A DNA stretch of 64,000 nt, taken from positions 28,325 to 92,324 of the forward strand of contig CAWHBZ010000010.1 in NCBI GenBank assembly GCA_963827645.1. Reading direction: 5' to 3'. The translations under genes and the position numbers were made by a program. Of this stretch, positions 5,176 to 43,380 are shown one piece after another. Origin of the DNA: an uncultured beta proteobacterium. GTDB lineage: Bacteria; Pseudomonadota; Gammaproteobacteria; Burkholderiales; Burkholderiaceae_C. The notes under the pieces were generated by a model that was given only the letters and a program-made list of their open reading frames with translations, was not told the origin of the DNA and made no database searches. The stretch's first letter is position 1, and each line of letters begins with the position of its first letter.

Positions 5176-6690
<1,515 letters not shown>

Positions 6691-8861: not shown

Positions 8862-9854
8862 ATGACCCCCATTTATCGACCCTCGCGCCGCGTGGTGCTG
8901 CGCGCCGCTGCCGCGGTGGCCGCGCTGGGCAGCGGCGCCGTCAAGGCGCAGGCGTGGCCTAACAAGCCCGTCACGCTGATCGTGCCGTTCCCCGCCGGCG
9001 GCGGCACCGACGCCTTCGCGCGGCCGCTGACCGCGATGCTGAGCAAGAACCTCGGCCGCCAGGTGATCATCGACAACAAGGGCGGCGCCGGCGGCACGGT
9101 GGGCGCCGTCGCTGGCCTCGCGCGCCGCGCCCGACGGCTACACCTTCTTCATGGGCGCCGTGCACCACACGATCGCGCCGTCGATGTACGCCAAGCTCGA
9201 CTACAACATCGAGACCGATTTCGTGCCGGTGGGGCTGGTGTCGAGCGTGCCGCAGGTGATCGTGGTGCACCCGCAGCGCGTGCCGGTGAAGGACCTGAAG
9301 GAGTTTCTCGAGCTACGTGCGCAAGAACCCGGGCAAGCTCAACTACGGCTCGGCCGGCAACGGCACGTCGCACCACCTGGCCGGCGAGCTGTTCAAGCTG
9401 CAGACCAAGACCTTCATCACCCACATCCCGTACCGCGGCGCCGGCCCGGCGCTGCAGGACCTGATCGCCGGCCAGGTCGACATGATGTTCGACGGCATGG
9501 GCTCTTCGTCCGCGCACATCAGGGCCGGCCGCATCAAGGCGCTGGCGGTGGCCGTCGCAAAAGCGCGCACCGGGCTTCGCCGACCTGCCCACCAGCGTCG
9601 AGGCCGGCGGCCCCGACTACCAGGTGTCCACCTGGTACGGCATCTGGGCGCCCAAGGGCACGCCCAAGGAGATCGGCGACCAGTTGCAAGCCGAGATGAA
9701 GAAGGCGTTCGCCGCCGACGAGATCAAGAGCCAGTGGAACGGCATGGGCGCCGAGATACCCAACATCTTCGGCGCCGAGTTCGGCAGGTTCGTCAGCAGC
9801 GAGGTCAAGCGCTGGGCCGAAGTGGTGAAGGCATCGGGCGCGAAGCTGGATTGA
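8862..9854 (+). CDS. Bug-family (TctC-like) tripartite tricarboxylate transporter substrate-binding protein, frameshifted
   Basis: MTPIYRPSRRVVLRAAAAVAALGSGAVKAQAWPNKPVTLIVPFPAGGGTDAFARPLTAMLSKNLGRQVIIDNKGGAGGTVGA.. then ..KLNYGSAGNGTSHHLAGELFKLQTKTFITHIPYRGAGPALQDLIAGQVDMMFDG.. then ..STWYGIWAPKGTPKEIGDQL..FVSSEVKRWAEVVKASGAKLD*. Confidence 0.8.
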
Positions 9855-9908: not shown

Positions 9909-10436
9909 GGCAAAGCCGCGGGCGGGTATGCGCCGGCGCTCGAATGCGGCAGCCCTTCGCTGCGCGAAGGGTCCCCTGCGGTACTCGGTCTCATGGCCCG
10001 TCGCGAAACTCGCTTCGCTCACTTCGTTCGCTGCGCTCGAACAATCGCGACGAGTCAGATCACGAAGCGCGCGCTGCGCGCGCGGCCACGAGCCCTGCGT
10101 TCCTCGGCGCCGCATATGTCGCTGCCGTCGCACACCCACCCACGGCTTTGCCGGCACCACCGTGGCATGTCGTCGAACAGCACGAGCGTTGCTGCGCGGT
10201 GGGCGGTACCCGGTGGGGGCGACTTGTGGGGCGGCGAGAAGCGCAGGTTCGGGGTCGGCACGCGCGCAGCGCGTGCTTCCACTTCTGACTCGCGGCGATT
10301 GTCCGAGCGCAACGACCGCAGTGAGTGAAGCGAGTTTCGCCGCGCGACCCCGAACCGAGCATCGCAGCGGAGTCGGCCTGCAGGGCCGACCGCCACAGTA
10401 GGAGCCCCTGCCGGGTACCGCCCGCCGCGCCGCGCC
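9909..10436. mobile_element. MITE-like palindromic repeat element, copy A (~528 bp), no transposase
   Basis: About 90% identical and colinear with 42843..43380. Long internal inverted arms at 10002..10058 and 10286..10345 (cgcgaaactcgcttcgctcacttcg... pairs with ...cgcagtgagtgaagcgagtttcgccgcg). Only spurious ORFs cross it. Confidence 0.7.
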
Positions 10437-14057: not shown

Positions 14058-16797
14058 CTACGGTGCTTTGAAGTCGCCGCCCCACGCGATCGACCAGCGC
14101 GCCGGGTCGGCGTACTTGCGGAACGCCGCGTTCACGTCGGCCAAGGTCAGCCGCTCGATCGCCGCATCGACCCGCTGCGACAGCGCGAACGTGCGCTTCA
14201 GGTGCAGGTTGCCGGCCAGTTGTGCGGCCACTGTGGCGTCCTGCGCGCGCGCGAGGCGGCGCAGCCCGAGCAGGCCGAGCCGGTTCTCGTCGAGCTCGGC
14301 CGGCGTGAAGCCACCGTCGCGGGTGCGCGCGATCTCCTCCTGCACCGCGGTCTCGACCTGCGCGCGGTTGCCCGGCGCGAAGATCGCCGACACCGACCAC
14401 AACGAGTTCGGCGCCTCGTCGTTCCAGTCGATCACCGAGCGCACGTCGTAGCTCAGGCCGCCGCGCTCGCGCACGCGCACCCACAGCCGCGACGCGGTGC
14501 CCTGCCCGAACATGCGGTTGGCCAGCAGCAGCGCCGGGTAGTCCGGGTGGTCGTCGGAGATCGGCAGCTGCAGCGCGGTGCGCAGGTTGGCGTTCTGCAT
14601 GTCCGGCGTCAGCAGCACGAAGCGCTCGGGCTTGGGCGCCAGCAGCGGCTCGGGCACGCGCACGTAGGGTATCGCGCCGCCGGCCGGGGCTCGCCAGCTG
14701 GCGAACGCGGATTCGAGCGCGCGCTTCACCGCCGGCGCGTCGACGTCGCCGACGGCGGCGAACTCCGACACCGCGGCGCTGTAGAAGCGCGCGTGGAAGG
14801 CGCGCAGCCGCTCGACGGTGACGGCGTTGACGTCCTGCACCGCCTCGTCGAACGTGCTCGCGTAGCGCAGGTGGCCGCGCGGGTACGGGTTGCCGTGGCG
14901 CTGCAGCGCGTTGGTGATCACGCCGTCGGGCTCCTTGCGCTGCGTCTCGATGCGCGCCAGCCACTGGCGGCGCGTCTCCTCCAGCGCCGCGGGCGCGAAC
15001 GCCGGCTGTTGCACGAGCCGGCCGACCAGCGTGATCAGTGCCGGCAGGTGCTCGCGCGGGGTGGTCAGCGTGGCCGTCAGCGTCTGCTCGTGCGCGGCGA
15101 ACGACACCTGCGCGCGCAGCCGGTCGAACTCGTCGCTCACCTGCTGGCGCGTGAGGCCGCCGCCGCCCTTGTCGAGCAGGCTGCCGACGAACGCGGCCAC
15201 CGTCTCCTCGCCGAGCAGGCTACTCTCGTCGCCGTAGTGCAGCCGCAACCTCGCCTGCACCACGCGGCCGCGTGTGCCCTTGGGAATCAGGCCCACGCGC
15301 ATGCCGCTGGCCAGCGTGAAGGTCTGCGTGCGCGCGTCGAGGTTGGCCGGCGTGGCGTCGAACGCCTCGGCCTGCGCGGCGGCCGCATCGCCCTTGTAGT
15401 CCTTGACCTGCGCGGCCACGTCGACGCGTGCCGGCGCTGGCGCGCGCTGCGGCTTGTCGGTGGGCAGGTACATGCCGACCGTGCGGTTGTCGCGCACCAG
15501 GCGCTCGTTGGCCACGCGCTGCACGTCGGCCAGCGTGAGCCTGCGCACCTGGTCGCGCTGCAGGAAGTACAGCCGCCAGTCGCCGCGCGCGATCGCGTTG
15601 GAGATCTGCACGCCGATCGTCTCGGGGTCGGTGAAGCCGAGCTCCCAGCCCTTCAGCCACGCCGCGCGCGCGCGCTCGAGCTCCTCGGCGGTGATCGGCT
15701 CGTCGCGCAGGCCGTCGAGCGTGGCCAGCAGCGCGGCGCGCGCCTTGTCGACGTCCTGCCCCGGCGCGAGCTGCAGGCCGAGGAACATCGGCGCCGGCTC
15801 GGCCAGCGACCACGCGAAGCCGAAGCTCGATGCCGCGAGCTGCGGCTCGACCAGCCGCTTGTGCAGCCGGCCGGCCGGCGCGTCGCCGAGGATCGACGCC
15901 AGCAGCTCGGCGGCCGCGAAGTCGGGGTGCGAGCCGGCGCCCATGTGGTGCGCCACGTAGATCATCGGCGAGCCGCCGACGCGGCGCAGCGTGACGCTGC
16001 GCTCGCCGTCCTGCGGCGGGTCGAGCGTGTAGGTGGGCTGCAGCGTGCGCGCAGGCTTGGGGATCGGCCCGAACGCCTCGGCCACCCAGGCCAGCGCGCG
16101 GGCCGGGTCGAAGCGGCCGGCGACGATCAGCGTCGCGTTGTCGGGCTGGTAGTAGGTGCGGTAGAACGCCTGCAGCCGCGCCGATGTCGACGTTCTCGAC
16201 GTCGGCGCGCGCGCCGATCGTGGCCTTGCCGTAGTTGTGCCACCAGTACATCGACGCCATCACCTGCTGCAGCAGCACGCGCGCCGGGTTGTTCTCGCCG
16301 CGCTCCATCTCGTTGCGCACCACCGTCATCTCGGTGTCGAGGTCCTTGCGCGCGATGAACGAGTTGACCATCGCGTCGGCCTGCCAGGCGAGGTACCAGC
16401 GCAGCGTGTCGTCGTTGGCCGAGAAGCTCGCGAAGTAGTTGGTGCGGTCGAACGACGTGGTGCCGTTGGCGCGCAGCCCGCGGCGCGAGAACTCGCCCCA
16501 CACCTCGGGGTGCTTGGGCGTGCCCTTGAACAGCAGGTGCTCCAGCAGGTGCGCCATGCCCGACTCGCCGTAGTTCTCCATGCGCGAGCCGACGTGGTAG
16601 GTGACGTTGACCGTGGTGGTGGGCTTGGAGTCGTCGGGCACCAGCAGCACCTGCAGGCCGTTGGCCAGCCGGTACTCGTGGATGCCTTCGACGCTGGCGC
16701 CGCGGGTGATGCCGCTGGGCAGTGCGGGCGGCGTCTGGGCGAGGGTGGCGCTGCAGACCAGCGCGAGGAAAAGAGACAACAGCGGGCGGTGCGGCAT
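14058..16797 (-). CDS. M16-family zinc metallopeptidase (pitrilysin/insulinase-like, ~910 aa), frameshifted near 16100
   Basis: Signal peptide MPHRPLLSLFLALVCSATLAQT. HxxEH motif in GMAHLLEHLLFKGT. ..VVRNEMERGENNP.. The C-terminal inactive M16 repeats occupy the 675-aa ORF 14058..16085. Confidence 0.8.
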
Positions 16798-16953
16798 GGC
16801 GGGCTCGGGGGCGGGGTGCGGCGCAGTGTAGGCCGGGTGTTCGAGGATCGCATTCAGCATCACGTGTACCCAAGTTGTGTCGAAACCAGGACACCCTGGC
16901 GCGATGGCTCGGGGCGTTCGTCCCCCAAGCACTTGGGGGCACCTTTGGAAGAC

Positions 16954-16973
16954 CGGTAGGAGATCGGTAGGAC
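16954..16973 (+). promoter_or_regulatory. tandem heptamer direct repeat CGGTAGGagatCGGTAGGac (11-bp periodicity), SARP/OmpR-type site 1
   Basis: Seen at 16954..16973, in the divergent intergenic region between the M16 peptidase and the secreted hydrolase gene. Near-identical to 21232..21251. Confidence 0.5.
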
Positions 16974-17139
16974 GGTGCTGTCTACGCTGTGGATGCCGGG
17001 TCGATGACCCGAGTTCAACCACGGAGCACCGCCATGTCCACTCAGTTTCACGCAACGCCACCACTGCGAGCATCGCGCGTCTTGGCGCAACGCCGCAATC
17101 TGCCATCGCGATCGCAGCCCGCTTGCCCGGCTGCCGGCG

Positions 17140-18948
17140 GGCCTTGCACCGATGGCTAGCCGCCGCCTTCTGCATCGCCGCGCCCGTGATGGCGCAGGCG
17201 GCAGGCGGCGTGACCACCGACCCGGTCACGCTGACCCGCACCTACCACGGCTCCGACGGCAGCGCGTTCACGACCCGCGAAGTGGGCAACACCATCGTCG
17301 GTTTCAGCGAAGACCTCAGCGGCCAGCGTGCCTTCGTCTTCAACGGCACGCGCTCGGGCTTCACGATCAGCGGCACCGATTACGCCGTTCCCGCCGGCGC
17401 CAACACGGCCACAGGGCCGCTGGTGCTGACCTACGCCAACGGCGGCTCCACGCTCACGCGCACCGGCGGCGACGATATCGGCGCGCCGTTCTGGCTCGCC
17501 AAGCTGCCGAGCGCGTTCAGCTACCCCAAGGAGCGTGCGGCGCGCTTCCAGTCCATATCGGGCCAGGACCTCGACGGTGTGTTCAAGGGCAGCGACGGCA
17601 GCCGGGCTTACGTGCGGCAGTACGGCTCGCAGGTGGTCTACGTCGCCGAGCGTTTTGCCGACGCCGACGCGACGCGCCCGACCCACTGGACGCTGGTGAT
17701 CGCGCAGCGTGACGGCGCCGGCTTGCTCAACGGCCTGTACTACGACCTGCCCAAGCAGACGGCCCCGCTGCGCGCCGGCAGGATGGGCGGGCAGGCCTAC
17801 AGTAAGCCACGCCAGTTCAGCCAGCGTACTGCTATGGGGCGCCAACACTGCGGTGACGGCGTTCAGCGCCGACTACGCGGTGGACTTCGACCGCTTCGCT
17901 CAGGAAATCCACGACCGGCTCGAACCCTTCGTCGTCGGCTTCAGCTATGCCATCGCGCGCAACGGGCGAGCTGGTGCGCTCGGGCGCCGGCGGCGATCGC
18001 CGCGCGGTGACGGCGACCAACGGGCTGGACGCACCAGTGCCCTACACGGCTTACACCGTCATCGAGACGGCCAGCACCAGCAAGACCGTCACGCTGGTGG
18101 CGGTGCTCAAGGCGCTGCGCCAGCGTGGCATTTCGGTCGATTCGCCGGTTTCGCCGTACCTGCCGGCCAACTGGTCGCGCGGCGCCGGGATGAACACGGT
18201 CACCTTTCGGCAGTTGCTGTCGCACGGGATGAAGCCGGCCGCCGGCAATGGCATGTTCAAGCCCGACGACTGCGACCCCGACTTCTATGGCTGCCTGCGC
18301 GACGCGGTGGCTGTCGGCATGACGCAGCCAGCCGGCTACGACAACATCCACTACGCGGTCTTCCGCGTGATCCTGCCGTTCGTGCTCGACCCGCCGGGGC
18401 GTGGGCGCAACTGTTCGCGACCGAGAGCCGCGAGACGGTGCTCAACGAGTGCTTCAGCGCGGTGTTCCAGGACGCGATGCGCAGCCTGCTGCGCGCAGGC
18501 CGGGGTGACGGCGGACTTCGCCTACCCGTCGGGATCGAACACCGCCTACCGCTACATCTGGGGCACGCCGCCCACCAACGAGCGCGCGCCCACCGGCAGC
18601 GAAGACGATTACCTGCGCGCCGGACCGGGCGGGCTGAAGATGAGCTCGCGCGAGTCCGCGCAGTTCCTCAGCCGGGCTGAAAAAGGCGAGCTGCTGTCCA
18701 CGGCCGACCTGGCCACCGCCAAGGCCATCGGCTTCGGTGAAGACAGGGCACCGAAGAACGGACCTTCCGGCGTCGGGCCGCACCGGTGCAAGAACGGCGG
18801 TGCCGGCGGCGCGGCCACGCAGGCCATGGTCTTCCCGGGCGTGGAGGTCTTCATTTCGCACAATTCGACGGGCAACGCGGCGCAGACCAGCAACGAGACA
18901 ATGTTGATCCAGGCCTGGCAAGCCGCGCTGGTCAACGCGGGGGACTGA
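17140..18948 (+). CDS. secreted serine hydrolase, beta-lactamase family domain with ~280-aa N-terminal unknown domain, frameshifted, start uncertain
   Basis: Signal-like LAAAFCIAAPVMAQA. The N-terminal domain has no family I recognise. SxxK motif in ..TVIETASTSKTVTLVAVLKALRQRGISVDSPVSPYLP.., C-terminus ..TMLIQAWQAALVNAGD*. Confidence 0.55.
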
Positions 18949-19079
18949 GGTTGGCGCTGCACTGCGCCGAGCAATGCAAGCCAGGGCAGCAATCCTCAGC
19001 TGGGCCCATCAGCTCGATACAGACCGCGCCGGGCCAGGGGATGTGTTGACAATCGTGGGCCAGTTCTCACACTGCCGGA

Positions 19080-21209
19080 ATGTCGCGGGTGCGGGAGTCG
19101 AAGGATGCGCCGGCGCAGTGCCTGGCCGAGCATGAACTGGCGGCCTCGTCGCTCAGCCTGTTGGCTCAACCGGCGCTGTGGCCTGCGCTGCGGCTGGGTC
19201 GCGGCGACGCGGCGCACGACCGGCCCTGGACCACCTACTGGTCGACCCGGCTCGACGCCACCCTGCAGGTAGAACAGGCGCGCAGCCGCTTCGAAGCAGC
19301 GTTCGCTGCGTTCGCCGCGCGCGACGACCGTGTCGGTGAGTTGCTCTGCATCGCCGCGATCATCGAGGGCTTCTACGTCGAAGAGGGCCCGCTCGACCCG
19401 CTCGACCGATGGATCGCAGCACTCGGCGAGCGCTTGCCGGTCGACGGTCACTGGCCGTCCGACGAGGTCGAGGCCACGATCATCGCCAGCGGCGTGGCGA
19501 TCCGTCTGCGCAACCCGTCGCACCCGTTGCTGGCGGCCTGGGCCACGCGCGGTGCCTCGCTGATGCGGCGGTTGAAACCGGGCGCCGCCCGGCTCAAGCT
19601 GGCGACCTTTCTGGCCCAGTACCACCTCTGGCGTGGCGAATTCGCCCGTTGCGGCTTGATCGTCGACGCCATGCCGGGGCTGGCGCTGCATGGCGTGCTG
19701 CCCGGCGAGGCGCTGGTCTGGCTGGACGCGGTGTCCACTTACGCGCGCTACACCGCCCAGCATCAGCGCGCCCGCGAGGCCATCGACGCGGCGCTGCTGC
19801 TGGTGCGTGAGCACGGGCTGCGCCAGCGCGCTTACGCGCTGCACGCCTATGGCGCGTCGGTGGCGTTGGCGGCGCACGACCTGACGCGTGCGCAAACCCA
19901 TGTCGATGCGATGCGTCCGCTGCTCGAAAGCGCTCCGCAAGCCGACCAGACGCACTACTGGCACTACCTGGCCGGGCTGACGCTGCTGCGCGGCGACGTG
20001 CCGGGCGCGATCGAACTGGCTCGTACGGCGCTACACAACTCCGGTGAGATCGGCGGGCCGACGCGTTTGGCCACCCACGCCCTGAGCCTTGGCCAGGCGC
20101 TGCTGCGCGCCGGCGACGACAGCGCTGCGCTGGAATGCTTTGTCAGTGCGCTCGAAACGGCCCGGCAGATGGACGCGGCGCTGCTGAGCTTCACGGCATC
20201 GCTGATGAGCAGCGCCTGCTTGCTGCATCTGGGCCGCACCGCGGATGCAACGCAGGCGCTGCACAACGCCTGGTCCGAAGGCTCCAGACGCGACTTCCGC
20301 GTCACCGCAGGGTGGTGGCTGCCCGACGTGGTGGCCGAAGCGGCGCAGGCGGCGATCGAGCGCGGCATCGAAACCACCTATGTGCGCCGCTTCGTGCGCC
20401 TGCACGGGCTGGCCGGCACCGACCCGGCGCTGGCCGACTGGCCCTGGCCGCTGGTGCTGCGTTCCTTCGGCGAGTTTCAAGCCGTCTTGGGCGAGCAGCT
20501 GCTGACGCGCCAAGCCGGCAAGACAGCGCAACGTCCGCTCGACCTGCTGCGCGCACTGCTCGCGCACGGCACCACCCCGCTGCCGGTGGCCACCGCCATG
20601 GACTGGCTGTGGCCCGACGCCGACCCGGCCGCGCAGCGCAAGTCCTTCGACGTGGCGTTGCTGCGGCTGCGGCGAACGCTCGGCGACGCGAGGCTGTTGC
20701 GTCTGGAAAGCGGCAAGCTGACGCTGGACGAACGCTGGTGCTGGAGCGACGTGGCTGCGCTGCAGCGGCTGCTGCATCACATCGACTCGGCGCATGCTGC
20801 AACGCTGGAACGCCTGCAAGACCTGGCGCGCCGCCTGCTCGACCTGATGCGTGGCCCGTTCCTGGCAGCCGAGGACGCCGACTGGGCGGCGGCGGCACGC
20901 TCGCGCTACAGCCGTCGTTTCGTCTTGGCGGCGTCGCAACTGGCCGCGCTGATCGAACCGCTCGACACCTCGGCCGCAATCGAGCTGTACGAGCGCGCAC
21001 TGGATGTCGAACCGCTGGCCGAATCGTTGAGCCGGCGGTTGATCCGTCTGCATGCCACCCGTGGCGACCGCGCCGAAGCGCTGCGCGCCTGGCAGTCGTG
21101 CTGCACGATGTTGCGCGTGGCAGCGGGACTGGGGCCGTCGCGCGAGACCCGCGCCCTGGCTGCGGAACTGAGCCTGCCGGACCCCGGGATTGAGGGAGCT
21201 CGGCGTTAG
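19080..21209 (+). CDS. transcriptional regulator: N-terminal ~460-aa helical/TPR-like domain followed by SARP-type winged-helix plus BTAD domain (intact 709-aa ORF)
   Basis: C-terminal ..RPLDLLRALLAHGTTPLPVATAMDWLWPDADPAAQRKSFDVALLRLRRTL.. (winged helix). ..RGDRAEALRAWQSCCTMLRVAAGLGPSRETRALAAEL (BTAD). The N-terminal region is Ala/Leu-rich and helical. Confidence 0.65.
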   Translation: MSRVRESKDAPAQCLAEHELAASSLSLLAQPALWPALRLGRGDAAHDRPWTTYWSTRLDATLQVEQARSRFEAAFAAFAARDDRVGELLCIAAIIEGFYVEEGPLDPLDRWIAALGERLPVDGHWPSDEVEATIIASGVAIRLRNPSHPLLAAWATRGASLMRRLKPGAARLKLATFLAQYHLWRGEFARCGLIVDAMPGLALHGVLPGEALVWLDAVSTYARYTAQHQRAREAIDAALLLVREHGLRQRAYALHAYGASVALAAHDLTRAQTHVDAMRPLLESAPQADQTHYWHYLAGLTLLRGDVPGAIELARTALHNSGEIGGPTRLATHALSLGQALLRAGDDSAALECFVSALETARQMDAALLSFTASLMSSACLLHLGRTADATQALHNAWSEGSRRDFRVTAGWWLPDVVAEAAQAAIERGIETTYVRRFVRLHGLAGTDPALADWPWPLVLRSFGEFQAVLGEQLLTRQAGKTAQRPLDLLRALLAHGTTPLPVATAMDWLWPDADPAAQRKSFDVALLRLRRTLGDARLLRLESGKLTLDERWCWSDVAALQRLLHHIDSAHAATLERLQDLARRLLDLMRGPFLAAEDADWAAAARSRYSRRFVLAASQLAALIEPLDTSAAIELYERALDVEPLAESLSRRLIRLHATRGDRAEALRAWQSCCTMLRVAAGLGPSRETRALAAELSLPDPGIEGARR

Positions 21210-21231
21210 TTAGGGGGTCGGCGGGTCGATT

Positions 21232-21251
21232 CGGTAGGGCATCGGTAGGAC
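21232..21251 (+). promoter_or_regulatory. tandem heptamer direct repeat CGGTAGGgcatCGGTAGGac, SARP-type site 2
   Basis: Seen at 21232..21251, 23 bp after the regulator stop and ~60 bp upstream of the secreted-protein gene at 21313. Confidence 0.5.
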
Positions 21252-21312
21252 CGGGGGCGGGACATTGCAGTCAGCCCGCAACCGCAGCGACTTCGATGCG
21301 GCGGCGGTTGGA

Positions 21313-21807
21313 ATGACAACCCTGGAGCATCACCCATGTCAACCCTGCCCCGTCAACCTTCTCGTTCGCACTGCATTGCTGGCTGCCTTGATTGGATTGG
21401 CAGGTGCTCACGCGCCCGCTTTCGCTCTGGACCAGGCGTTCATCGCTGAGAGCTGCCCGATGGCCGCAATGGGCCGAGACCCGCCGTCGGCGATGCGCAA
21501 GTCGGTCTGCGGCGTGGTGAACCCGGGCCTGACCAGCGTGCCGGAGTGGGACACCCTGGAGTTGATGGCGATCGACGGCAATGTGAGTGGCGCTGGCGTG
21601 GTCGCCAGGCTGCAATGCATGAGCCGAGCGTCGGGCGCCCTGTCGACCGTGGCAGTGGTCAAGAGCGTGCCCTCTACCAGCCCGAAGAAGGTCGCGGTGC
21701 GCCTGCCGGCGCCGCTGAACTTCAGTCGTTGCGCCTACATGGTCGTCATCGACGTCGACACCGCCCGCGCCGACACAAAGGCGCTGATGGTGGTGCTGCG
21801 CAAGTGA
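21313..21807 (+). CDS. hypothetical small secreted protein (signal peptide)
   Basis: MTTLEHHPCQPCPVNLLVRTALLAALIGLAGAHAPAFALDQAF... No recognisable family. Confidence 0.5.
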   Translation: MTTLEHHPCQPCPVNLLVRTALLAALIGLAGAHAPAFALDQAFIAESCPMAAMGRDPPSAMRKSVCGVVNPGLTSVPEWDTLELMAIDGNVSGAGVVARLQCMSRASGALSTVAVVKSVPSTSPKKVAVRLPAPLNFSRCAYMVVIDVDTARADTKALMVVLRK

Positions 21808-21849
21808 TGCCCGGCCAGCCTGGCCGCCGAAGCCTCAAGGAGTACCACC

Positions 21850-22575
21850 ATGTTCGCCCGTCCCGCACAGTTCATCGCGCATGCCGCCACGGCGGTCGTC
21901 GCGGCAGCGGCCGGCTGGTTCGCACATGAGCCGGCGCCGCCGACGCCGGCGACGGTTGCAACGCAACCGCCCGCGCCGCTGCAGGCGGCCGTTGCGCCAC
22001 CGGCATCCTCGACGCCGTTGATCGCGGTGGCAAGTGACGGCAACGTCACGCTGCGGGTCGAGCAGCAGCCGCTGCAGTGGGTGCTCGACCAGATCGCGGT
22101 TCAAGCCGGCTGGCCGGACCTGCAGCGGCGCGCGTGTCCGGCGGCTGTGCAGGTGGCTGCCAGCGCCCCAGCCACCCCGCCCGCCGGTCCGGCCGCGGCG
22201 GCCCCGACGCCCGTGCTGGCATGCTCGGAATCAGCGGCGCGGCAGGTCGATCCGGCGCGCGTGCTGCAGGCCATCGAATCCGGCACCGAGGCCGAGCGCT
22301 TTCAGGGGCTGATGCTGGCGCGCTCCGCGGACGTCCCGGTCAACGAGGCCACGCTGAAGCACCTGTTCGAAACCGGCGGATCCGAACGGGTGGAGATCGC
22401 GGCCTTCGAGGCTTATCTGGCCCTGCGCGCCGACCGCCCCGACGAGCTGCGCGCGGCGCTCGAAGCAGCGCAGTACGCGCCCACGGCGACCATCCGGCGC
22501 GACGCCGCGCAGCGCCTGCACGAACTGCGCGAAGTCGAGCGGCTGAACGCGTTGCCGCCGCTCGCCGACCCGTAA
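21850..22575 (+). CDS. hypothetical protein, N-terminal hydrophobic anchor, Pro/Ala-rich linker, C-terminal HEAT-like repeats
   Basis: Strong RBS AAGGAG 8 nt upstream. MFARPAQFIAHAATAVVAAAAGWFA.. (membrane anchor?). ..ATIRRDAAQRLHELREVERLNALPP. Intact. Confidence 0.5.
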   Translation: MFARPAQFIAHAATAVVAAAAGWFAHEPAPPTPATVATQPPAPLQAAVAPPASSTPLIAVASDGNVTLRVEQQPLQWVLDQIAVQAGWPDLQRRACPAAVQVAASAPATPPAGPAAAAPTPVLACSESAARQVDPARVLQAIESGTEAERFQGLMLARSADVPVNEATLKHLFETGGSERVEIAAFEAYLALRADRPDELRAALEAAQYAPTATIRRDAAQRLHELREVERLNALPPLADP

Positions 22576-22715
22576 CCCGAAGGTCTTCGCCGCCACGGCA
22601 CGAGCGCATGGCCACGGCCATGCGGTGACGTCGCGGCGTGTCTTTTCATCGGGCGGCGCGGGGGGCAAAGCGCTGCCGGATCCTCAACCCTTGCCCCACT
22701 ACACAGGAGATCATC

Positions 22716-23256
22716 ATGAGTCATTCAACCAACCAGCGCGTCCGCGCCCTTTGCCGTGCCTCCAGTGCGTTGGCCCTTGCCGGCGCAGCGTCGATCGGCC
22801 GCGCATGCCGACGCCGCCGGCCAGGACTGGAAGGGCTACGCGGGCGTGAACTGCATGGCGCAGAGCAACAACGAGTCCGATCCGGCGCAGCGCGGTCAAC
22901 CAGACCGCGCTCGCCAACACCGGCACCAGCACCGATCACGGTGTTCTGCCCGGTGGTGCGCGACGTGTGCCGAGGGCGGTGACAACCGGGTGACGTGCCG
23001 TGCGGGTGCGCTTCCGCAACCGCAACTCGGCGGTGGCCGGCCGTTGCGAGTTCAGCTCGCACGACATCAACGGCATCAGGATCGACTCCAGGTCGGCCGT
23101 GGTGCCGCCCGGTCGCGGCGATCCGGCTGCAACTCGGCCCGGTGGATGCGCACAACTGGGGCAGCTATGTGCTCAGCTGCCAAGCTGCCGGGGCGCGATG
23201 CCGCCACGAACCTGCAGTCGTACATCGTCAACTACCGGGTCGATGAGGCGCTGTAG
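22716..23256 (+). CDS. hypothetical secreted protein, multiple frameshifts
   Basis: RBS AGGAGA. MSHSTNQRVRALCRASSALALAGAASIG.. (signal peptide). Continues ..DWKGYAGVNCMAQSNNESDPA.. ..VRFRNRNSAVAGRCEFSSHDINGIRIDSRSAVVPP.. ..NLQSYIVNYRVDEAL* across 3 frames. Confidence 0.45.
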
Positions 23257-23436
23257 GACTGGCGCGCCCGCTGGTCATTGGGCGCCGGGCGCACTTCGTG
23301 GTGCCGCCCGGCGCCACTTCTCGTGGGTCGTCGAGTCCCTTTGTCATGCGAACGTCGATGCCGCGCAGCGGCGGAGGTGTCGGGCATGTCCCGTCGCGCG
23401 TGCGCGAGAAGAGCTTGCCGCTCCCGTCCCACCCTC

Positions 23437-26351
23437 TCACCCACACGCGCCGATGTAGCCGCACGTGGTGCAGAACTCGCAGCCGTCCTTGTGGATCAGC
23501 GTCGGGTTGCCGCACTCGGGGCAGCGCGCGCCGGCCATCGGCACGGCGCGCGCCGTTGCGCGGCTTGTCGGCGGGCGTCTGCAGGATGCCCATCGCGTTG
23601 AGCGGAAAGCCCGCTGCATCGAGCACGCCGAGCATCGCGTAGCGGTGGATCACCAGCCGCGCGATGTAGGCCACCGTCGACGGCCAGAGCTGCTGGCGGC
23701 GCTCGCCCGGCACCGGCGCCATGAAGTGGCCGAGCGGCTCGCCGCACGTTGAGCAGCTTGCGCAGCTTCATGCCGATCCACGCCGGGTCGATCACCCGCA
23801 TGTCGAGCGACAGCAGGCGCGCCAGGCCGTCGAGCGCGCGCGGGTAGTTGCCCGAGAAGCCGATCGCGCACGGCCGCGTCACGAGCGCGCCGTCGGTCCG
23901 CCGGCAGCTGCACTTCCTTCAGCGTGAGCGGTGAACGCCTCGCCGCTGGCCGGGTTGGACACGTCCACCGCCCACGCCAGCGTGCCCGAGGTGCCGGTGC
24001 GCGGCTCGTCGCGGCTGAACATCGCGTCGAGCACCGGCGTCGAGCCGCCGCTCCTGCAGCGCGCCGAGCTGCTCGCAGCGCCAGCGGATCACCGCCGCGG
24101 TGGCCGCCACCACGCCGGGGAACAGGCGCGGCTCGCCGTGCGGCGGCAACGGCATCTCGAACGAGCGCTCTTCCGACACCGTGGCCAGCGCGTCGAGCTT
24201 GAGGCTGCAGCCACGCGGCGTCGTTGGCGCGCATGTCCATCGACAGCGTCTTGGCCAGCGCCGCCAGGCCGCGCGGCTGCTCGGCGCCGTTGACCCACAC
24301 CTCGAACGGCAGGTTGCGCGCGAACAGGCCCGACTCCGGCCCCGCCTCGGCGGGCAACTCGCCGACGAACAGCGCGAACTCGCCGAGCGGGTGCTGGATC
24401 ATGTAGCTCCACGCCGGGTTGCCGCCGGGCAAGCTCGGGGCGGCTCGGCCAGCGCAGCGACGCCAGCACCGGCGCCGGCAGGCGCTCGAGCGCGCAGGCG
24501 CTGGTTGGCGTCGTCACCGGCCACCGTTGCGGCGGCGCGGCTGCGGCCGCGTCGACGCTGAGCACCGCGCCGAGCACCGCGTTCGGCCGGTAGGTCGCCA
24601 GGCCCTTCAGGCCCGACTTCCACGCGCTGCAGGTACAGGCCCTGGAAGTCGGCGTACGGATAGTCGGCCGGCACGTTGACCGTCTTGCTGATCGAGGTGT
24701 CGATGAACGGCGCCACCGCGGCCACCATCGCGGCGTGGTCCTCGCGCGCTCATCTCCAGCGCGGTGACGAAGGCGTCGCTCAGCGGCGTCGTCGTCGCCC
24801 TTGAGGTGCCGGTACAGGCGCCAGGCGTGGTCTTCGACCGCGTACTCCTTGAAGCGTGCCGTCGGGCTCGCGCTTGCTTGCCGCGTGTAGCTCCAGCTGA
24901 ACGCCGGCTCGATGCCGTTGCTCGCGTTGTCGGCAAACGCCAGGCTGATGGTGCCGGTGGGCGCGATCGACAGCAGGTGCGAGTTGCGGATGCCCTGCGC
25001 GCGGATGCTTGTCCTTCAGCGCCTGCGGCAGGCGCGACGCGAAGCTGCCGCGCGACAAGTACAGGTCGGCGTTGAACAGCGGGAACGCGCCGCGCTCGCG
25101 CGCCAGGTCGACCGACGCGTCGTAGGCGGCGTCGCGCATCACCTCGGCGATGCGCGCGGCCTCGGCGCGCGCGGCGGCGCTGTCGTAGCGCAGGTCCGAG
25201 CATCACCAGCGCGTCGCCGAGCCCGGTGAAGCCGAGGCCGATGCGCCGCTTGGCGCGCGCCTCGTCGTGCTGCTGCGGCAGCGGCCACACGGTGGACGTC
25301 GAGCACGTTGTCGAGCATGCGCACCGCGACCTTCACCACGTCGACGAAGGCGTCGTCGTCGAAAGCGCGCGTTCGGCTCGAACGGGTCGTGCGACGAAGA
25401 GCGTGAGGTCGATCGAGCCGAGGCAGCAGCAGCCGTAGGCGGGAAGCGGTTGCTCACCGCACGGGTTGGTCGCACTCGATGCGTCTCGCAATAGCCGAGG
25501 TTGTTGTCGGCGTTGATGCGGTCGATGAACAGCACGCCCGGCTCGGCGTGGTCGTAGGTCGAGCGCATGATCTGGTCCCACAGGTCGCGCGCGCGCGGGC
25601 GCGCGGTAGACCCACAGGCCGTCGGCGCGCCGCTGCGCGCCGGCGGCCTTCTGCGCCGCGCTCGGCTCGGCGCGGTGCACCAGCTCGACCTCGAGGTCGT
25701 CCTCGACCGCGCGCATGAAGGCATCGGTCACGCCGACCGAGATGTTGAAGTTGGTGAGCTCGCCGGCGTCCTTGGCGTGGATGAACTCTTCGACGTCGGG
25801 GTGGTCGCAGCGCAGCACGCCCATCTGCGCGCCGCGCCGGCTGCCGGCGGACTCCACCGTTTCGCAGGAGCGGTCGAACACCCGCATGTAGCTCACCGGC
25901 CCCGATGCGCTGCTCTGCGTGGTGCCGACCCAGGCGCCCTTGCGGGCGGATGCGCGAGAAGTCGTAGCCCACGCCGCCGCCGCGGCGCATGGTCTCGGCC
26001 GCTTCGGTGAGCGCGATGTAGATGCCGGGATAGCCTTCTTCGGGCTCGGCGATCGAGTCGCCCACCGGCTGCACGAAGCAGTTGATCAGCGTGGCGCCGA
26101 GCGCCGGTGCCGGCCGCCGAGTCGATGCGCCCGGCGGGGATGAAGCCGCTCCTTTGCGCGTCGAAGAAGCGCCCCTCCCACAGCGTGCGCGTCGCCGGCG
26201 CCTCGACCGCGGCCAGCGCACGCGCCACCCGCGCGCGCACGTCGTCGGCGCTGCGCTCGTCGCCCTTGGCGTACTTTTCGAGCAGCACCTCGTGGCTGAT
26301 CGGCTGTTGCGGCAGCGCCAGTGCCTGGTGCTGGATCGTCGAATCGGACAT
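23437..26351 (-). CDS. nrdJ: class II (adenosylcobalamin-dependent) ribonucleotide reductase NrdJ, ~970 aa, many frameshifts
   Basis: N-terminal [32 protein letters not shown].., ..[51 protein letters not shown].., ..[19 protein letters not shown].., C-terminal zinc ribbon ..[28 protein letters not shown]. Confidence 0.85.
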
Positions 26352-26620
26352 CGTCAAATGCTCCGGACAAGGTGGTGGGCGCGCGCAGGGCGCGCACCCT
26401 GCCATCGAGGGACAACCCGATCAGCGGGCCGCACGGAAACTGTATGGAAAATCAGTATCGCGCGACCCCTGCCGGGCCGCAAGAGCCAGCGCCGTTCGCG
26501 GACTTCGCATGGGGTTGTTCCCCGCGGCTTGACGCATGGGCCGAACCGTGGTCGCGCTGCGTGTTGTCTCGTCGTCATAGAGTTCGCTGTCTTGCCACCC
26601 CATCACGCGGAGCCACCCCG

Positions 26621-40203: not shown

Positions 40204-41490
40204 TCACGCGGCGCGCTTCCCCAGGCCCGCTCGGCCGCGATGTCGGGCTGCTTGGCGAACACGCCGTCCTTCATCACCGCGAGCAAACGTTTCGGGTCGC
40301 GCAGGATCGCGAGGTTGGCCATCGGGTCGCCATCGACCAGCAGCAGGTCGGCGAGGTAAGCCTTCCTTGATCTGCCCCAGCTCGCCCGGCTTCATCATGA
40401 TCTGGCCGCCGTACAGCGTGGCGCAGCGGATCGCCTCGCCCGGCGTGAAGCCCAGGTACTTGACGAAGAACTCGAGGTCGCGCGCGTTCTGGCAGTGCGG
40501 CGTCATCGCGAAGCCGTAGTCACCGCCGAACAGGATGCGCACGCCGCGCTTGTGCATCGCCTTCAGCGATTCGACGGCGTGATCCCACTCGTGCTGGTAG
40601 CCCATGGCCACCGCCTGGGCGTGCGTGACGCCCCACTGCTCGGCCTCGTGCAGCATCGCGTACAGGATCGCGATGCCCGGCGCGACGAACACGCGGTCGC
40701 GCGCGGCTTCGAGCATGTCGAGCGTCTCGTCGTCGGTGTAGCTGGCGTGGTAGATCACGTCGATGCCGTGGCGCAGCGCCTGCTTGACGCTGGCCGCCGA
40801 GCGCGCGTGCGCGGTGCCGCGCTTGCCGCGCATGCGCACCTCTTCCATCGCGGCGGCCACCTCGGCATCGGTCATCCAGTTGGTGTCGGCCGGCGACTGC
40901 GGCGTGAAGTTGTCGCCCGACAGGTTGAGCTTGATCGAATCGACGCCGTACTTGAGAAACAGGCGCACGGCCTTGCGCATCTCTTCGGCGCCGCTGACGT
41001 TGACGCCGAAGCTGAACTCGGGAAACGGCAGGTGCGGCAACGTCTCGTCGCCGAGCGCCCCCAGCACCGTGATCTCCTGGCTGGCGGCGAGGTAACGCGG
41101 GCCCGGGATCTGCCCGGCATCGATGGCGTTGCGGATCACCACGTCGAGCCGCGGCTTGGCGCACGCGGCGCCGACGCACGACGTGAAGCCCGCTTCCAGA
41201 TAGCGCCTGGCGACCTTGGCGCACCACAACACGTGCTCTTCGAGCGGCATCGTCTGGATGCCGGCCAGCGTGGCCGCGTCGTTCCACGAGAAGTGCGTGT
41301 GGGCCTCGCACATGCCGGGCATCAGCGTGGCGCCGGCGCCGTCGATGATCGTGGCACCGGCCGGCGAGATCGCCGCGTTGCTGCGCCCGACCGCCTTGAT
41401 GCGGTTGCCCTGCACCAGCACGCTGCCGGGCACCGGGTTGCCGCCGCTGCCGTCGAGGATGCGCACGTTGGTGAACAGCGTATTGGCCAT
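40204..41490 (-). CDS. amidohydrolase-family metallo-hydrolase (paralogue 1), C-terminal frameshift
   Basis: MANTLFTNVRILDGSGGNPVPGSVLVQGNRIKAVG..IDGAGATLMPGMCEAHTHFSWND..PRLDVVIRNAIDAGQIPGPRYLAAS.. About 55% identical to the next gene. Confidence 0.8.
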   Translation of the reverse strand: MANTLFTNVRILDGSGGNPVPGSVLVQGNRIKAVGRSNAAISPAGATIIDGAGATLMPGMCEAHTHFSWNDAATLAGIQTMPLEEHVLWCAKVARRYLEAGFTSCVGAACAKPRLDVVIRNAIDAGQIPGPRYLAASQEITVLGALGDETLPHLPFPEFSFGVNVSGAEEMRKAVRLFLKYGVDSIKLNLSGDNFTPQSPADTNWMTDAEVAAAMEEVRMRGKRGTAHARSAASVKQALRHGIDVIYHASYTDDETLDMLEAARDRVFVAPGIAILYAMLHEAEQWGVTHAQAVAMGYQHEWDHAVESLKAMHKRGVRILFGGDYGFAMTPHCQNARDLEFFVKYLGFTPGEAIRCATLYGGQIMMKPGELGQIKEGLPRRPAAGRWRPDGQPRDPARPETFARGDEGRRVRQAARHRGRAGLGKRAA

Positions 41491-41500
41491 CGTCGTCTCC

Positions 41501-42802
41501 TCAGGCGGCCCAGCGTGTAGCCGTTGTCGTGCGTGACGCGGCGCGCACCGGCGGCGCGCGGTGGAACTCGCCGTCCTTCATCACCGCGAGGATGCGGTTC
41601 TTGTCCTGCAGCACCGTGATGTCGGCCAGCGGGTCGCCATCGATCAGCAGGATGTCGGCCAGGCAGCCTTCGCGGATGTAGCCGAGCTGCTTGCCCATCT
41701 TCATCATCGGCCCGCCCCACGCGGTGGCCGACAGCAGCGCCTCCATCGTGCTCATGCCGACGTGCTTGACGAAGTACTCCAGGTCCTTCGCATTGGTGCC
41801 GTGCGGCGTCCACGCGAAGCCGTAGTCGCCGCCGGGCAGGATGCGGATGCCGCGCTTGCGCATCGCCTTCATGCTCTCGATCGCGCATTCGAGCTCGCGG
41901 TGGTAGCCCATCTTGCGCGTCACTTCGGGCGTGAGGCCCCACTGCGACGCGTGGTGGCAGGTGTTGATCAGCCACGCCAGGCCGGGGGCGACGAAGTGCT
42001 CGAACTTGTGCTGCTCCAGCAGGTCGAGCGCCTCCTCGTCGGCGAAGCTGGCGTGGTAGATCACCTCGATGCCCTGCTTGACGCATTGCTTGATCGACCA
42101 GGTCGAGCGCGCGTGCGCGGCAACGCGCTTGCCCCAGGCCTTGGCCTCCTGCACGCAGACGGTGATCTCCTCTTCGGTGAACTGGCTGGCCTCGCTGGGC
42201 ATGCCGGTGATCGATTCGCCGGACAGGTTGATCTTCAGCGTGTCGACCCCGTACTTGGCGAACATGCGCACGCAGCGCCGCATCTCGTGCGGGCCGCTGA
42301 CGATGGCGCCGAATGCGAACTCGGGTTGCGGCAGATGCGGCTGCGTGGTGTCGCCCAGGCCGCCGGGCACCGTGATCTCCTGGCTCGCCGCCAGGTATCG
42401 CGGCCCGATGATGGTGCCGTCGTTGATCGCGTTGCGGATCACCACGTCGAGCCGCGGCTTGGCGGCCGCGGCGCCGACGCAGCTGGTCCAGCCCATGTCG
42501 AGGTAGCGCTTGGCGACCTCGGCGCACCACAGGATGTGCTCTTCCGGCGGCATGCGCTGGATCGCATCGAGGCTCGGCTGGTCGTTCCACGAGAAGTGCG
42601 TGTGCGCCTCGACCATGCCGGGCATCAGGAAGGCGCCGGCGCCGTCGATCATCTGCGCGCCGGCGATCGGCTGGCTGCGCTGGCCATAGCCGGTCTTGAC
42701 GACGCGGCTGATCTTGTTGCCCTGCACCAGCACGTCGCCGGTGAACGGCGCTTCGCCACCGCCGTCGAAGACCCGCACGTTGGTGAAGAGAACGTCGGCC
42801 AT
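41501..42802 (-). CDS. amidohydrolase-family metallo-hydrolase (paralogue 2, intact)
   Basis: MADVLFTNVRVFDGGGEAPFTGDVLVQGNKISRVV..IDGAGAFLMPGMVEAHTHFSWND..PRLDVVIRNAINDGTIIGPRYLAAS..HARS..ILPGGDYGF... Confidence 0.85.
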   Translation of the reverse strand: MADVLFTNVRVFDGGGEAPFTGDVLVQGNKISRVVKTGYGQRSQPIAGAQMIDGAGAFLMPGMVEAHTHFSWNDQPSLDAIQRMPPEEHILWCAEVAKRYLDMGWTSCVGAAAAKPRLDVVIRNAINDGTIIGPRYLAASQEITVPGGLGDTTQPHLPQPEFAFGAIVSGPHEMRRCVRMFAKYGVDTLKINLSGESITGMPSEASQFTEEEITVCVQEAKAWGKRVAAHARSTWSIKQCVKQGIEVIYHASFADEEALDLLEQHKFEHFVAPGLAWLINTCHHASQWGLTPEVTRKMGYHRELECAIESMKAMRKRGIRILPGGDYGFAWTPHGTNAKDLEYFVKHVGMSTMEALLSATAWGGPMMKMGKQLGYIREGCLADILLIDGDPLADITVLQDKNRILAVMKDGEFHRAPPVRAASRTTTATRWAA

Positions 42803-42842
42803 GTCAGTTGCTCCTGTCCTGTGCACTGCTGAGACCGAGCGG

Positions 42843-43380
42843 GGCAAAGCCGCGGGCGGGTATGCGCCGGCGCTCGAATGCGGCAGCCCCTCGCTGCGCG
42901 ACGGGTGCCCTGCGCTGCTCGGTCTCGTGGCCCGCCGAGAAACTCGCTATCGCTCGCTTCGGTCGCTGCGCTCAGACAATCTCGGCGAGTCAGAGGACGA
43001 AGCGCGCGCTGCGCGCGCGCGGCCACGAAGCTCCTGCGCTCGCTCGGCGCCGCACGATGTCGCTGCCGTCGCACACCCACCCACGGCTTTGCCGGCACCA
43101 CCGTGGCATGCGTCGTCGAACAGCAACGAGCGTTGCTGCGCGGTGGGCGGTGCCCGGTGGGGGCGACTTGTGGGGCGGCGAGAAGCGCAGGGCCGGGGTC
43201 GGCGCGCGCGAGCGCGCGCTTCCACTTCTGACTCGCGGCGATTGTCCGAGCGGAACGACCGCAGGGAGTGAAGCGAGTTTCGCCGCGCGACCCCGGCCCG
43301 AGCATCGCAGCGGAGTCGGCCTGCAAGGCCGACCGCCACAGTCAGGAGCCCCTGCCGGGTACCGCCCGCCGCGCCGCGCC
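42843..43380. mobile_element. MITE-like palindromic repeat element, copy B (~538 bp)
   Basis: Colinear and ~90% identical with 9909..10436 in the same orientation. Sits between the amidohydrolase start and the alpha/beta-hydrolase stop. Confidence 0.7.

Follow-up and report, generated by a model that had tools for sequence, protein, structure and literature searches.

Genes and Repeat Elements at the Locus

A 64,000-nucleotide (nt) stretch of contig CAWHBZ010000010.1 from an uncultured betaproteobacterium (hereafter, the window) contains a 2.1-kb plus-strand gene (19080–21209) encoding a 709-amino-acid (aa) regulator, as well as two short direct-repeat elements; one is located in front of a secreted hydrolase gene (17035–18948) upstream of the regulator gene, and the other lies directly past the regulator gene, in front of three small genes (g1, g2, and g3). 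The pattern CGGTAGG-N4-CGGTAGG occurs exactly twice in the 64 kb, both times on the plus strand and in intergenic DNA. Site 1 (CGGTAGGAGATCGGTAGGAC, 16954–16973) lies in a divergent intergenic region, between the ATG of a minus-strand M16 peptidase gene (16860) and a plus-strand ATG at 17035; in site 2 (CGGTAGGGCATCGGTAGGAC, 21232–21251), the heptamer repeat begins 22 nt past the regulator stop codon (TAG, 21207–21209). Even when up to two mismatches were allowed, the 18-mer pattern still presented only two matches, versus 0.12 expected, and two or more matches were found in 0 of 100 shuffles, confirming the original prediction that these are the sole tandem copies and that both are intergenic. 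The sequences flanking the two sites are unrelated to each other. The lone heptamer CGGTAGG was found 13 times in the window, as compared to 2.7 expected; the nine remaining copies fall within coding sequence, where their codon context is ..TAC-CG.. (Tyr-Arg), without a second copy at a distance of 11 bp, and the possibility that this over-representation reflects extra sites was rejected as a codon effect.

Read as pairs of 11-bp direct repeats, the two elements are box 1 (ACCGGTAGGAG ATCGGTAGGAC; 16952–16973, plus strand) and box 2 (TTCGGTAGGGC ATCGGTAGGAC; 21230–21251, plus strand). A weight matrix trained on 42 sites from outside the window scored box 2 at 46.0 bits and box 1 at 39.3 bits; because nothing else in the window scored above 4.5 bits, the window contains exactly two boxes. 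A box identical to box 1 is present in the orthologous intergenic region, between the M16 peptidase and beta-lactamase-like (bla-like) genes, of a close relative (L072), and box 2 has orthologous counterparts in many loci, as described below; no box was found upstream of a 58% identical homologue of the bla-like gene on a lower-GC contig (L073). Nine nucleotides past each box is a −10-like hexamer with A and T at fixed offsets (A2 and T6), TACGCT (16983–16988, plus strand) for box 1 and GACATT (21261–21266, plus strand) for box 2; the closest relatives (L001 and L031–L034) carry GACATT, GACACT, or GAGACT at the place of the latter. Judging from these positions, transcription would start near 16995 and 21273, respectively. 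A scan of 16700–21500 for σ70 consensus promoters found none, which is consistent with activator dependence, and no terminator was found between the regulator gene and g1.

The Regulator and Its Relatives

The C-terminus of the regulator (residues ~455–700) is a module of the Streptomyces antibiotic regulatory protein (SARP) type, i.e., an OmpR-type winged helix followed by a BTAD domain. BTAD was matched by Pfam directly after the winged helix (PF03704, residues ~557–697, E = 4.2e-10, 40.6 bits versus a cutoff of 22.1), and a profile of the C-terminal 260 aa, built from twelve homologues, matched the SARP domain of AfsR (8hvr_I, residues 45–280) over almost its whole length (E = 1.2e-8), as well as EmbR (E = 1.9e-6) and, weakly, OmpR DNA-binding domains (E about 0.04). 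In the profile alignment, the invariant R529, located in the helix FDVALLRLRR, aligns with AfsR R92, which is one of two base-contacting residues in the AfsR–DNA structure (PMC10936776). An AlphaFold2 (AF2) model with 47 homologues in the alignment (predicted local distance difference test [pLDDT] 91.9, predicted template modelling score [pTM] 0.87) comprises an all-helical superhelix at residues 17–442, a winged helix at 458–549 (beta-sheet at 458–475, helices at 485–496, 503–510, and 516–534, the last representing the recognition helix, and a wing at 540–549), and BTAD helices at 557–696. In Foldseek searches, the C-terminal module matched the AfsR SARP chains of transcription-initiation complexes (template modelling [TM] score 0.66–0.68, 23–24% identity) and also EmbR; the original prediction of a winged helix plus BTAD at this end of the protein was thus borne out by the Pfam, profile, and structural matches alike. 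The N-terminal part matched tetratricopeptide repeat (TPR) superhelices including Rap receptors (TM 0.62–0.70 over ~380 columns), which at 11–12% identity is perhaps generic TPR similarity; Pfam TPR repeats are located around residues 294–363. No NTPase domain was found by Pfam in the regulator or in its orthologues of 683–726 aa, nor was there a Pfam Response_reg match in the regulator, whose N-terminus is all-helical and TPR-like; Pfam, profile, and Foldseek searches found no GerE/LuxR domain at the C-terminus, and NCBIfam presented no significant match for the protein. Upstream of the regulator start, only the last 55 nt are conserved in close relatives (91–98% identity; window 19025–19080, L033 1474–1528, L001 9947–10001), and this stretch is the probable location of a ribosome-binding site or promoter for the regulator gene itself.

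Homologues of the regulator are ~700-aa proteins found in Burkholderiales-type bacteria and in metagenomes; named Betaproteobacteria with relatives include Ideonella, Azohydromonas, Chitinimonas, Rhodocyclaceae, and Burkholderiaceae, and JGI automatic annotation labels these proteins MalT-like. An exhaustive hidden Markov model search identified the ~700-aa family as a branch of a larger group (3764 representatives at E ≤ 1e-30), in which the best-scoring members outside the family are mostly ~1040–1090 aa long and contain AAA_16 (STAND NTPase), MalT-like TPR, Trans_reg_C, and BTAD. Proteins of this type, with Trans_reg_C and BTAD at the C-terminus, number in the thousands. This longer architecture represents a MalT-like regulator with a SARP output; the ~700-aa family lost the NTPase or never had one. 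In a literature search, we found no description of a proteobacterial TPR-SARP family or of the ~1060-aa STAND-TPR-SARP form.

A Conserved Box Family Past the Regulator Gene

We compared loci carrying orthologues of the regulator at 92, 77, 71, 62, 59, 53, 47, and 43% identity, along with 41 metagenome loci. In nearly every orthologue with at least ~43% identity (up to 93%), GTAGG-N6-GTA(G/A)G is found within ~100 bp past the regulator stop codon, where it is usually followed by a small g1-family gene encoding a signal-peptide protein; the intergenic sequence around this box and the upstream genes change between loci. Boxes at the position equivalent to that of box 2 are present in L001–L010 and L031–L057. 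Scanning ~572 kb with at most one mismatch gave 64 hits, from which inner registers of longer arrays and six chance-looking hits (five without the hexamer and one with it) were removed, leaving 42 non-redundant sites; chance-looking hits inside genes were located at window 36446, L001 5844, and L007 11328. The logo of the 42 sites presents two 11-bp units, nine nearly information-free positions, and then nAnnCT, and the A and T of the hexamer are found in 42 of 42 sites. Because the site exclusions had partly used the hexamer, we recounted all non-redundant zero-mismatch sites; hexamer A2 and T6 are present in 28 of these 29, versus a background of 2.1%, and the sole exception is the inner register of a four-unit array.

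Two 11-bp direct repeats together make up the functional unit, a 22-bp box with the consensus aTCGGTAGGrc-ATCGGTAGGAC, in which the GTAGG core is invariant. While the originally proposed 11-bp spacing of the repeats holds, the heptamer does not hold as the unit, since what is conserved is 11 bp around the GTAGG core; the fixed distance of 9 nt to an nAnnnT hexamer agrees with the proposal that the repeats occupy the −35 region.

Further boxes are found before the next small gene (L005, L006, L035–L038, and L043), 280 bp from the first box (L030), and upstream of the regulator (L026 and L044). In addition to the beta-lactamase-fold hydrolase genes of the window and L072, genes preceded by a box include non-homologous secreted-protein genes, one encoding an M23-like peptidase (L011) and one encoding a 766-aa protein (L008). 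Across the compared loci, these extra boxes in every case lie no more than a few kb from the regulator gene. Arrays of three to four tandem units were identified in L006, L038, L043, L044, and L017. In the most distant box-carrying orthologues (43–47% identity; L009 12337–13897 and L010 12163–14012), the first target belongs to a different lipoprotein family and not to g1; a patatin-like phospholipase gene is located downstream of the lipoprotein gene, directly after it in L009 and with one small gene between them in L010.

The original prediction had proposed a motif search as a check; the exact pattern CSGTAGGNNATCSGTAGGAC presented 20 matches in a 596-Gb genome collection (counted outside the window's own genome, for which the regulon was viewed in the 64-kb window). 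Sixteen of these matches are scattered over unrelated phyla, as chance predicts, and the other four have a regulator homologue within 8 kb (in Chitinimonas lacunae, Azohydromonas sediminis, a Rhodocyclaceae metagenome-assembled genome [MAG], and a Burkholderiaceae MAG); one of these four homologues has only 28% identity over its full length. All four regulator-linked matches obey the hexamer rule. The linkage between box and regulator is independent of g1, and it is mainly because of this linkage that we assign the box to the regulator encoded at 19080 and not to an unlinked factor.

Proposed Promoter Anatomy and Mechanism

In our assessment, the repeats are probably conserved operator/promoter cores that are most likely bound by the SARP-type regulator encoded at 19080, which would activate the secreted-protein genes; the regulon interpretation put forward in the original prediction (one SARP-like activator whose direct-repeat boxes control secreted-protein genes) is supported in silico. 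If the hexamer is taken as the −10 element (−12 to −7), the 22-bp box would span approximately −43 to −22; the would-be −35 position reads GRCATC, i.e., there is no −35 element. Each box would thus replace the −35 element of an activator-dependent promoter. Two copies of the SARP module would bind side by side, one per 11-bp repeat, and the bound dimer would recruit or adapt the housekeeping σ70 RNA polymerase holoenzyme in the manner of AfsR at the afs box. A g1-g2-g3 operon of small exported proteins would be transcribed from box 2, and the secreted beta-lactamase-fold hydrolase gene from box 1, with transcription possibly continuing into the regulator gene. Signal sensing or autoinhibition would presumably be the task of the N-terminal TPR superhelix.

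Comparison with Known Systems

At the afsS promoter, two 11-bp repeats (−40 to −19) overlap a poor −35 element, and the −10 element is a weak CACTGT; two SARP protomers are located side by side, contact the first 8 bp of each repeat, and replace the −35 contact, a mechanism termed “sigma adaptation” (PMC10936776). More generally, SARP sites consist of heptamers repeated directly every 11 bp, with 8 bp between the 3′ repeat and the −10 element (PMC7040171, PMC10936776). Like AfsR and other SARPs (ActII-ORF4, DnrI, and RedD), the regulator described here contains an OmpR-type winged helix directly followed by BTAD, and the Arg equivalent to the base-contacting R92 of AfsR is invariant in its family (R529). 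Likewise, the boxes consist of direct repeats (two, sometimes three or four) with an 11-bp period, which cover the −35 region and keep a short, constant spacing to a weak −10 element (nAnnCT here, CACTGT at afsS), and the regulator gene lies beside its putative target genes. However, the host is a betaproteobacterium, the SARP module is C-terminal behind a TPR region (in small, medium, and large SARPs, the module is N-terminal), the regulator has no NOD/NB-ARC domain, the repeat sequence is TCGGTAGGAC and not of the TCGAG type, and the box, whose conserved block stops 9–10 bp short of the hexamer, is 1–3 bp further from the −10 element than in AfsR. The targets also differ, as they are small secreted proteins and hydrolases instead of a biosynthetic gene cluster; none of the compared loci presented such a cluster near the regulator, the genes around it encoding small secreted proteins or housekeeping functions. 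According to reviews, SARPs occur solely in Actinobacteria and carry the SARP module N-terminally, any further domains (NOD/NB-ARC, TPR) coming after it (PMC10972967); a survey found that proteobacterial SARP-profile hits are mostly without a helix-turn-helix or BTAD (PMC7040171).

MalT/LAL STAND regulators also have a sensor TPR first and a C-terminal DNA-binding output, and the nearest larger relatives of the regulator (~1040–1090 aa) carry AAA_16 and MalT-like TPR; however, the 709-aa regulator and its ~700-aa orthologues are without an NTPase domain, and their output is a SARP module and not a LuxR-type helix-turn-helix. PhoB and OmpR share the winged-helix fold, as reflected in the weak profile matches, and in the pho box, two 11-bp-periodic direct repeats likewise take the place of the −35 element, roughly 10 bp ahead of the −10 element; PhoB and OmpR differ from the system described here in that the regulator has no receiver domain and no partner kinase gene, its winged helix is followed by BTAD, and its N-terminus is TPR. 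RRNPP/Rap receptors resemble the regulator in their TPR superhelix, but Rap proteins have no output domain of the SARP type, and no small gene for a pheromone-like peptide was observed. Overall, the system appears to be best filed as one that would work like a SARP with its direct-repeat box but lies outside the SARPs by architecture and host taxonomy.

Alternative Explanations

Several observations weigh against the proposal that the 19080 regulator acts at these boxes as a SARP. The Pfam Trans_reg_C match at residues 484–536 is below threshold (15.8 versus 26.2 bits), and, depending on the repeat register, the box is 1–3 bp further from the −10 element than the 8-bp AfsR/SARP rule would place it. 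Homologues with at most 41% identity presented no box in the few kb examined, despite having the same recognition-helix peptide, FD[VA]ALLRLR, and they presented no alternative 11-bp-periodic repeat that co-varies with the protein. In L017 (Pseudomonadota MAG JAUXTN010000192, 740–781), three perfect tandem units (CGGTAGGGCAT CGGTAGGGCAT CGGTAGGAC) have no regulator homologue in the 5.6 kb examined and no nAnnnT hexamer at +9; this array could belong to the regulon at a large distance from its regulator, or it could be unrelated. Adjacency, finally, could reflect an old regulator–g1 pair whose promoter is read by another factor.

The last point leads to the possibility that the boxes are genuine activator-dependent promoters bound by another winged-helix protein (e.g., an OmpR/PhoB-family response regulator), the BTAD regulator being only a syntenic neighbor of g1. 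An 11-bp direct-repeat box that ends ~10 bp upstream of the −10 element is also in the style of a pho box, and distant homologues that have the same recognition-helix peptide without nearby boxes fit this explanation as well. However, no response-regulator gene is a conserved neighbor in any compared locus, boxes before unrelated targets, too, are concentrated in the few kb around the BTAD regulator gene, and four of the 20 exact matches in the collection adjoin a regulator homologue; we therefore regard a different winged-helix protein as unlikely. We find it more improbable still that the regulator binds the boxes as a repressor or roadblock, at site 2 perhaps occluding read-through from its own gene. 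While sequence alone cannot give the direction of regulation, and site 2 is just 22 nt past the stop codon with no terminator before g1, the lack of a −35 element and the position of the box there, at a rigid distance from a weak −10 element, represent the anatomy of an activator-dependent promoter; in addition, BTAD/SARP modules have to date been characterised as activators (PMC10936776, PMC10972967).

Short conserved G/C-rich motifs before secreted-protein genes superficially resemble promoters of the extracytoplasmic function (ECF) type, and the repeats might then represent the −35 and −10 elements of an alternative σ factor that needs no activator. This explanation appears very improbable given the tandem duplication with exact 11-bp periodicity and sometimes three to four units, as well as the spacing, as unit 2 ends 9 nt and unit 1 ends 20 nt before the hexamer, whereas a σ factor expects 16–18 nt; moreover, none of the compared loci has a σ or anti-σ gene as a conserved neighbor. 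From the over-representation of the lone heptamer, one could suspect that the two sites arose by chance or as copies of a dispersed repeat or a mobile-element end and have no regulatory role, but the other heptamers are codon-driven and located in coding DNA, the flanks of the two sites are unrelated, the tandem pattern would be expected only 0.12 times, and boxes are conserved at orthologous promoter positions in dozens of loci; with the pattern count, cross-locus conservation, matrix scores, and hexamer recount all against it, we rejected this origin as having a negligible probability.

Putative Target Genes and Gene Map of the Window

The window has a G+C content of ~70%, and spurious open reading frames (ORFs) are abundant; for this reason, coding frames were assigned via third-position GC. 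The third-position GC signal switches frame on the same strand every ~150–600 nt across the whole window (e.g., 422–1211, 5686–6676, 8889–9851, 17035–18948, 21296–23185, and 23513–26369). As compared to L001 (92% protein identity), the window presents ten single-base insertions in 21296–23185, seven of them located inside or near g3, along with one 4-nt insertion; the 2.1-kb regulator gene presents zero insertions. These frame jumps look like the product of an error-prone assembly, not of gene decay, and regulon decay as the reason for the frameshifted target genes was rejected because the frame flips are window-wide. Since frameshifts are abundant, gene starts and ORF boundaries in the window are unreliable.

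The box-1 target (17035–18948, plus strand) is a frameshifted gene whose secreted product combines a beta-lactamase-fold serine hydrolase domain (PF00144 match at 17947–18948, E = 5.6e-19) with an N-terminal domain that matches none known. Its start is most likely the ATG at 17035, which is preceded by GGAG and corresponds to the ATG from which the 87% identical orthologue in L072 was called; relative to L072, the window has a 1-nt insertion shortly after this ATG. Site 1 is therefore located before the hydrolase gene and divergent from the M16 peptidase gene, as originally predicted, with the proposed start at 17140 replaced by that at 17035. The M16 peptidase gene itself (minus strand) presented Pfam M16 and M16_C matches.

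Box 2 is followed by g1 (21337–21807, plus strand), which encodes a small secreted protein of ~160 aa and has a 1-nt insertion near its start relative to L001. Because its homologues follow the box in most loci, g1 appears to be the signature target of the box family. Its AF2 model is a beta-sandwich (pLDDT 78), for which a fold search found weak matches to carbohydrate-binding-module-like beta-sandwiches (TM 0.37–0.45) that are too weak to assign a function. The second gene, g2 (21850–22575, plus strand; 86% identical to g2 of L001), encodes a protein without a known domain; a hydrophobic segment at its N-terminus is interpreted as a membrane anchor. The third, g3 (22716–23256, plus strand), encodes a small secreted Cys-containing protein and is broken by at least six single-base insertions, with fragments in all three frames, as judged by comparison with L001. 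Since the matrix scan gave neither g2 nor g3 a box of its own, both are probably co-transcribed with g1; the g2 homologue in L005 carries its own box. Genes downstream of boxes encode secreted (signal-peptide) proteins, in agreement with the original prediction. None of g1, g2, and g3 belongs to a Pfam family, and NCBIfam presented nothing significant for these three genes or the hydrolase, the lone g2 match (16.6 bits versus a cutoff of 554) being due to chance. One gene, L005_y, was considered as a beta-lactamase relative based on an S-x-x-K motif and was dropped because it had no Pfam or BLAST support. One may speculate that the targets act in the cell envelope or in extracellular lysis.

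The genes upstream of the regulator vary by locus (ABC-F, IclR, and most often yebC-purD-hemF). In many genomes (L005–L010), the regulator gene has a conserved chromosomal position, divergent from yebC-purD-hemF-nadD-rsfS-rlmH-maf-rng, and a HerA_C/DUF87 ATPase gene is found after the small target gene(s). The window neighborhood with M16 peptidase and bla-like genes is common only to L072, whose 3.1-kb contig stops short of where a regulator gene would lie; neither of these two genes is a conserved neighbor of the regulator in the compared loci. An Rfam scan of 16000–24000 found no match. Elsewhere in the window, a ~500-bp repeat is present twice (9909–10430 and 42843–43370, 89–95% identity) and contains inverted arms of 118 nt (9972–10089 and 10254–10371, 77% complementary); this could be a mobile element or a dispersed non-coding one. 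Two minus-strand tandem paralogous genes (40257–41600 and 41564–42900) share 72–87% nucleotide identity in several blocks, offset by ~1306 bp.

Implications

SARPs are textbook actinomycete regulators, and recent cryo-electron microscopy studies account for their ability to make up for poor −35 elements. We tentatively suggest, as a possibility that is still rather doubtful, that SARP “sigma adaptation” extends beyond Actinobacteria to a widespread proteobacterial lineage, consisting of the ~1060-aa STAND-TPR-SARP form and the NTPase-less ~700-aa branch, in which a MalT-like sensor is coupled to a C-terminal SARP. The ~700-aa branch would then be a one-component switch, in which a Rap-like TPR region senses a signal, possibly peptide- or envelope-derived, and a SARP dimer drives a mini-secretome (a beta-sandwich protein and peptidoglycan-type hydrolases) from σ70 promoters without a −35 element. 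If the system described here works as proposed, the SARP mechanism would reach Betaproteobacteria, with a reversed domain order (sensor first, SARP last) and a regulon unrelated to antibiotics. The system would also be a clean one for testing, with one regulator, a sharply defined 22-bp box, a rigid spacing to the −10 element, and a handful of target promoters per genome, and culturable carriers include Ideonella sp. DXS29W (L006), Azohydromonas sediminis SYSU G00088 (L030), and Chitinimonas lacunae LMG 29894 (L011). The box provides a ready weight matrix for regulon annotation, and it would open a first route to the function of three secreted-protein families without a known domain.

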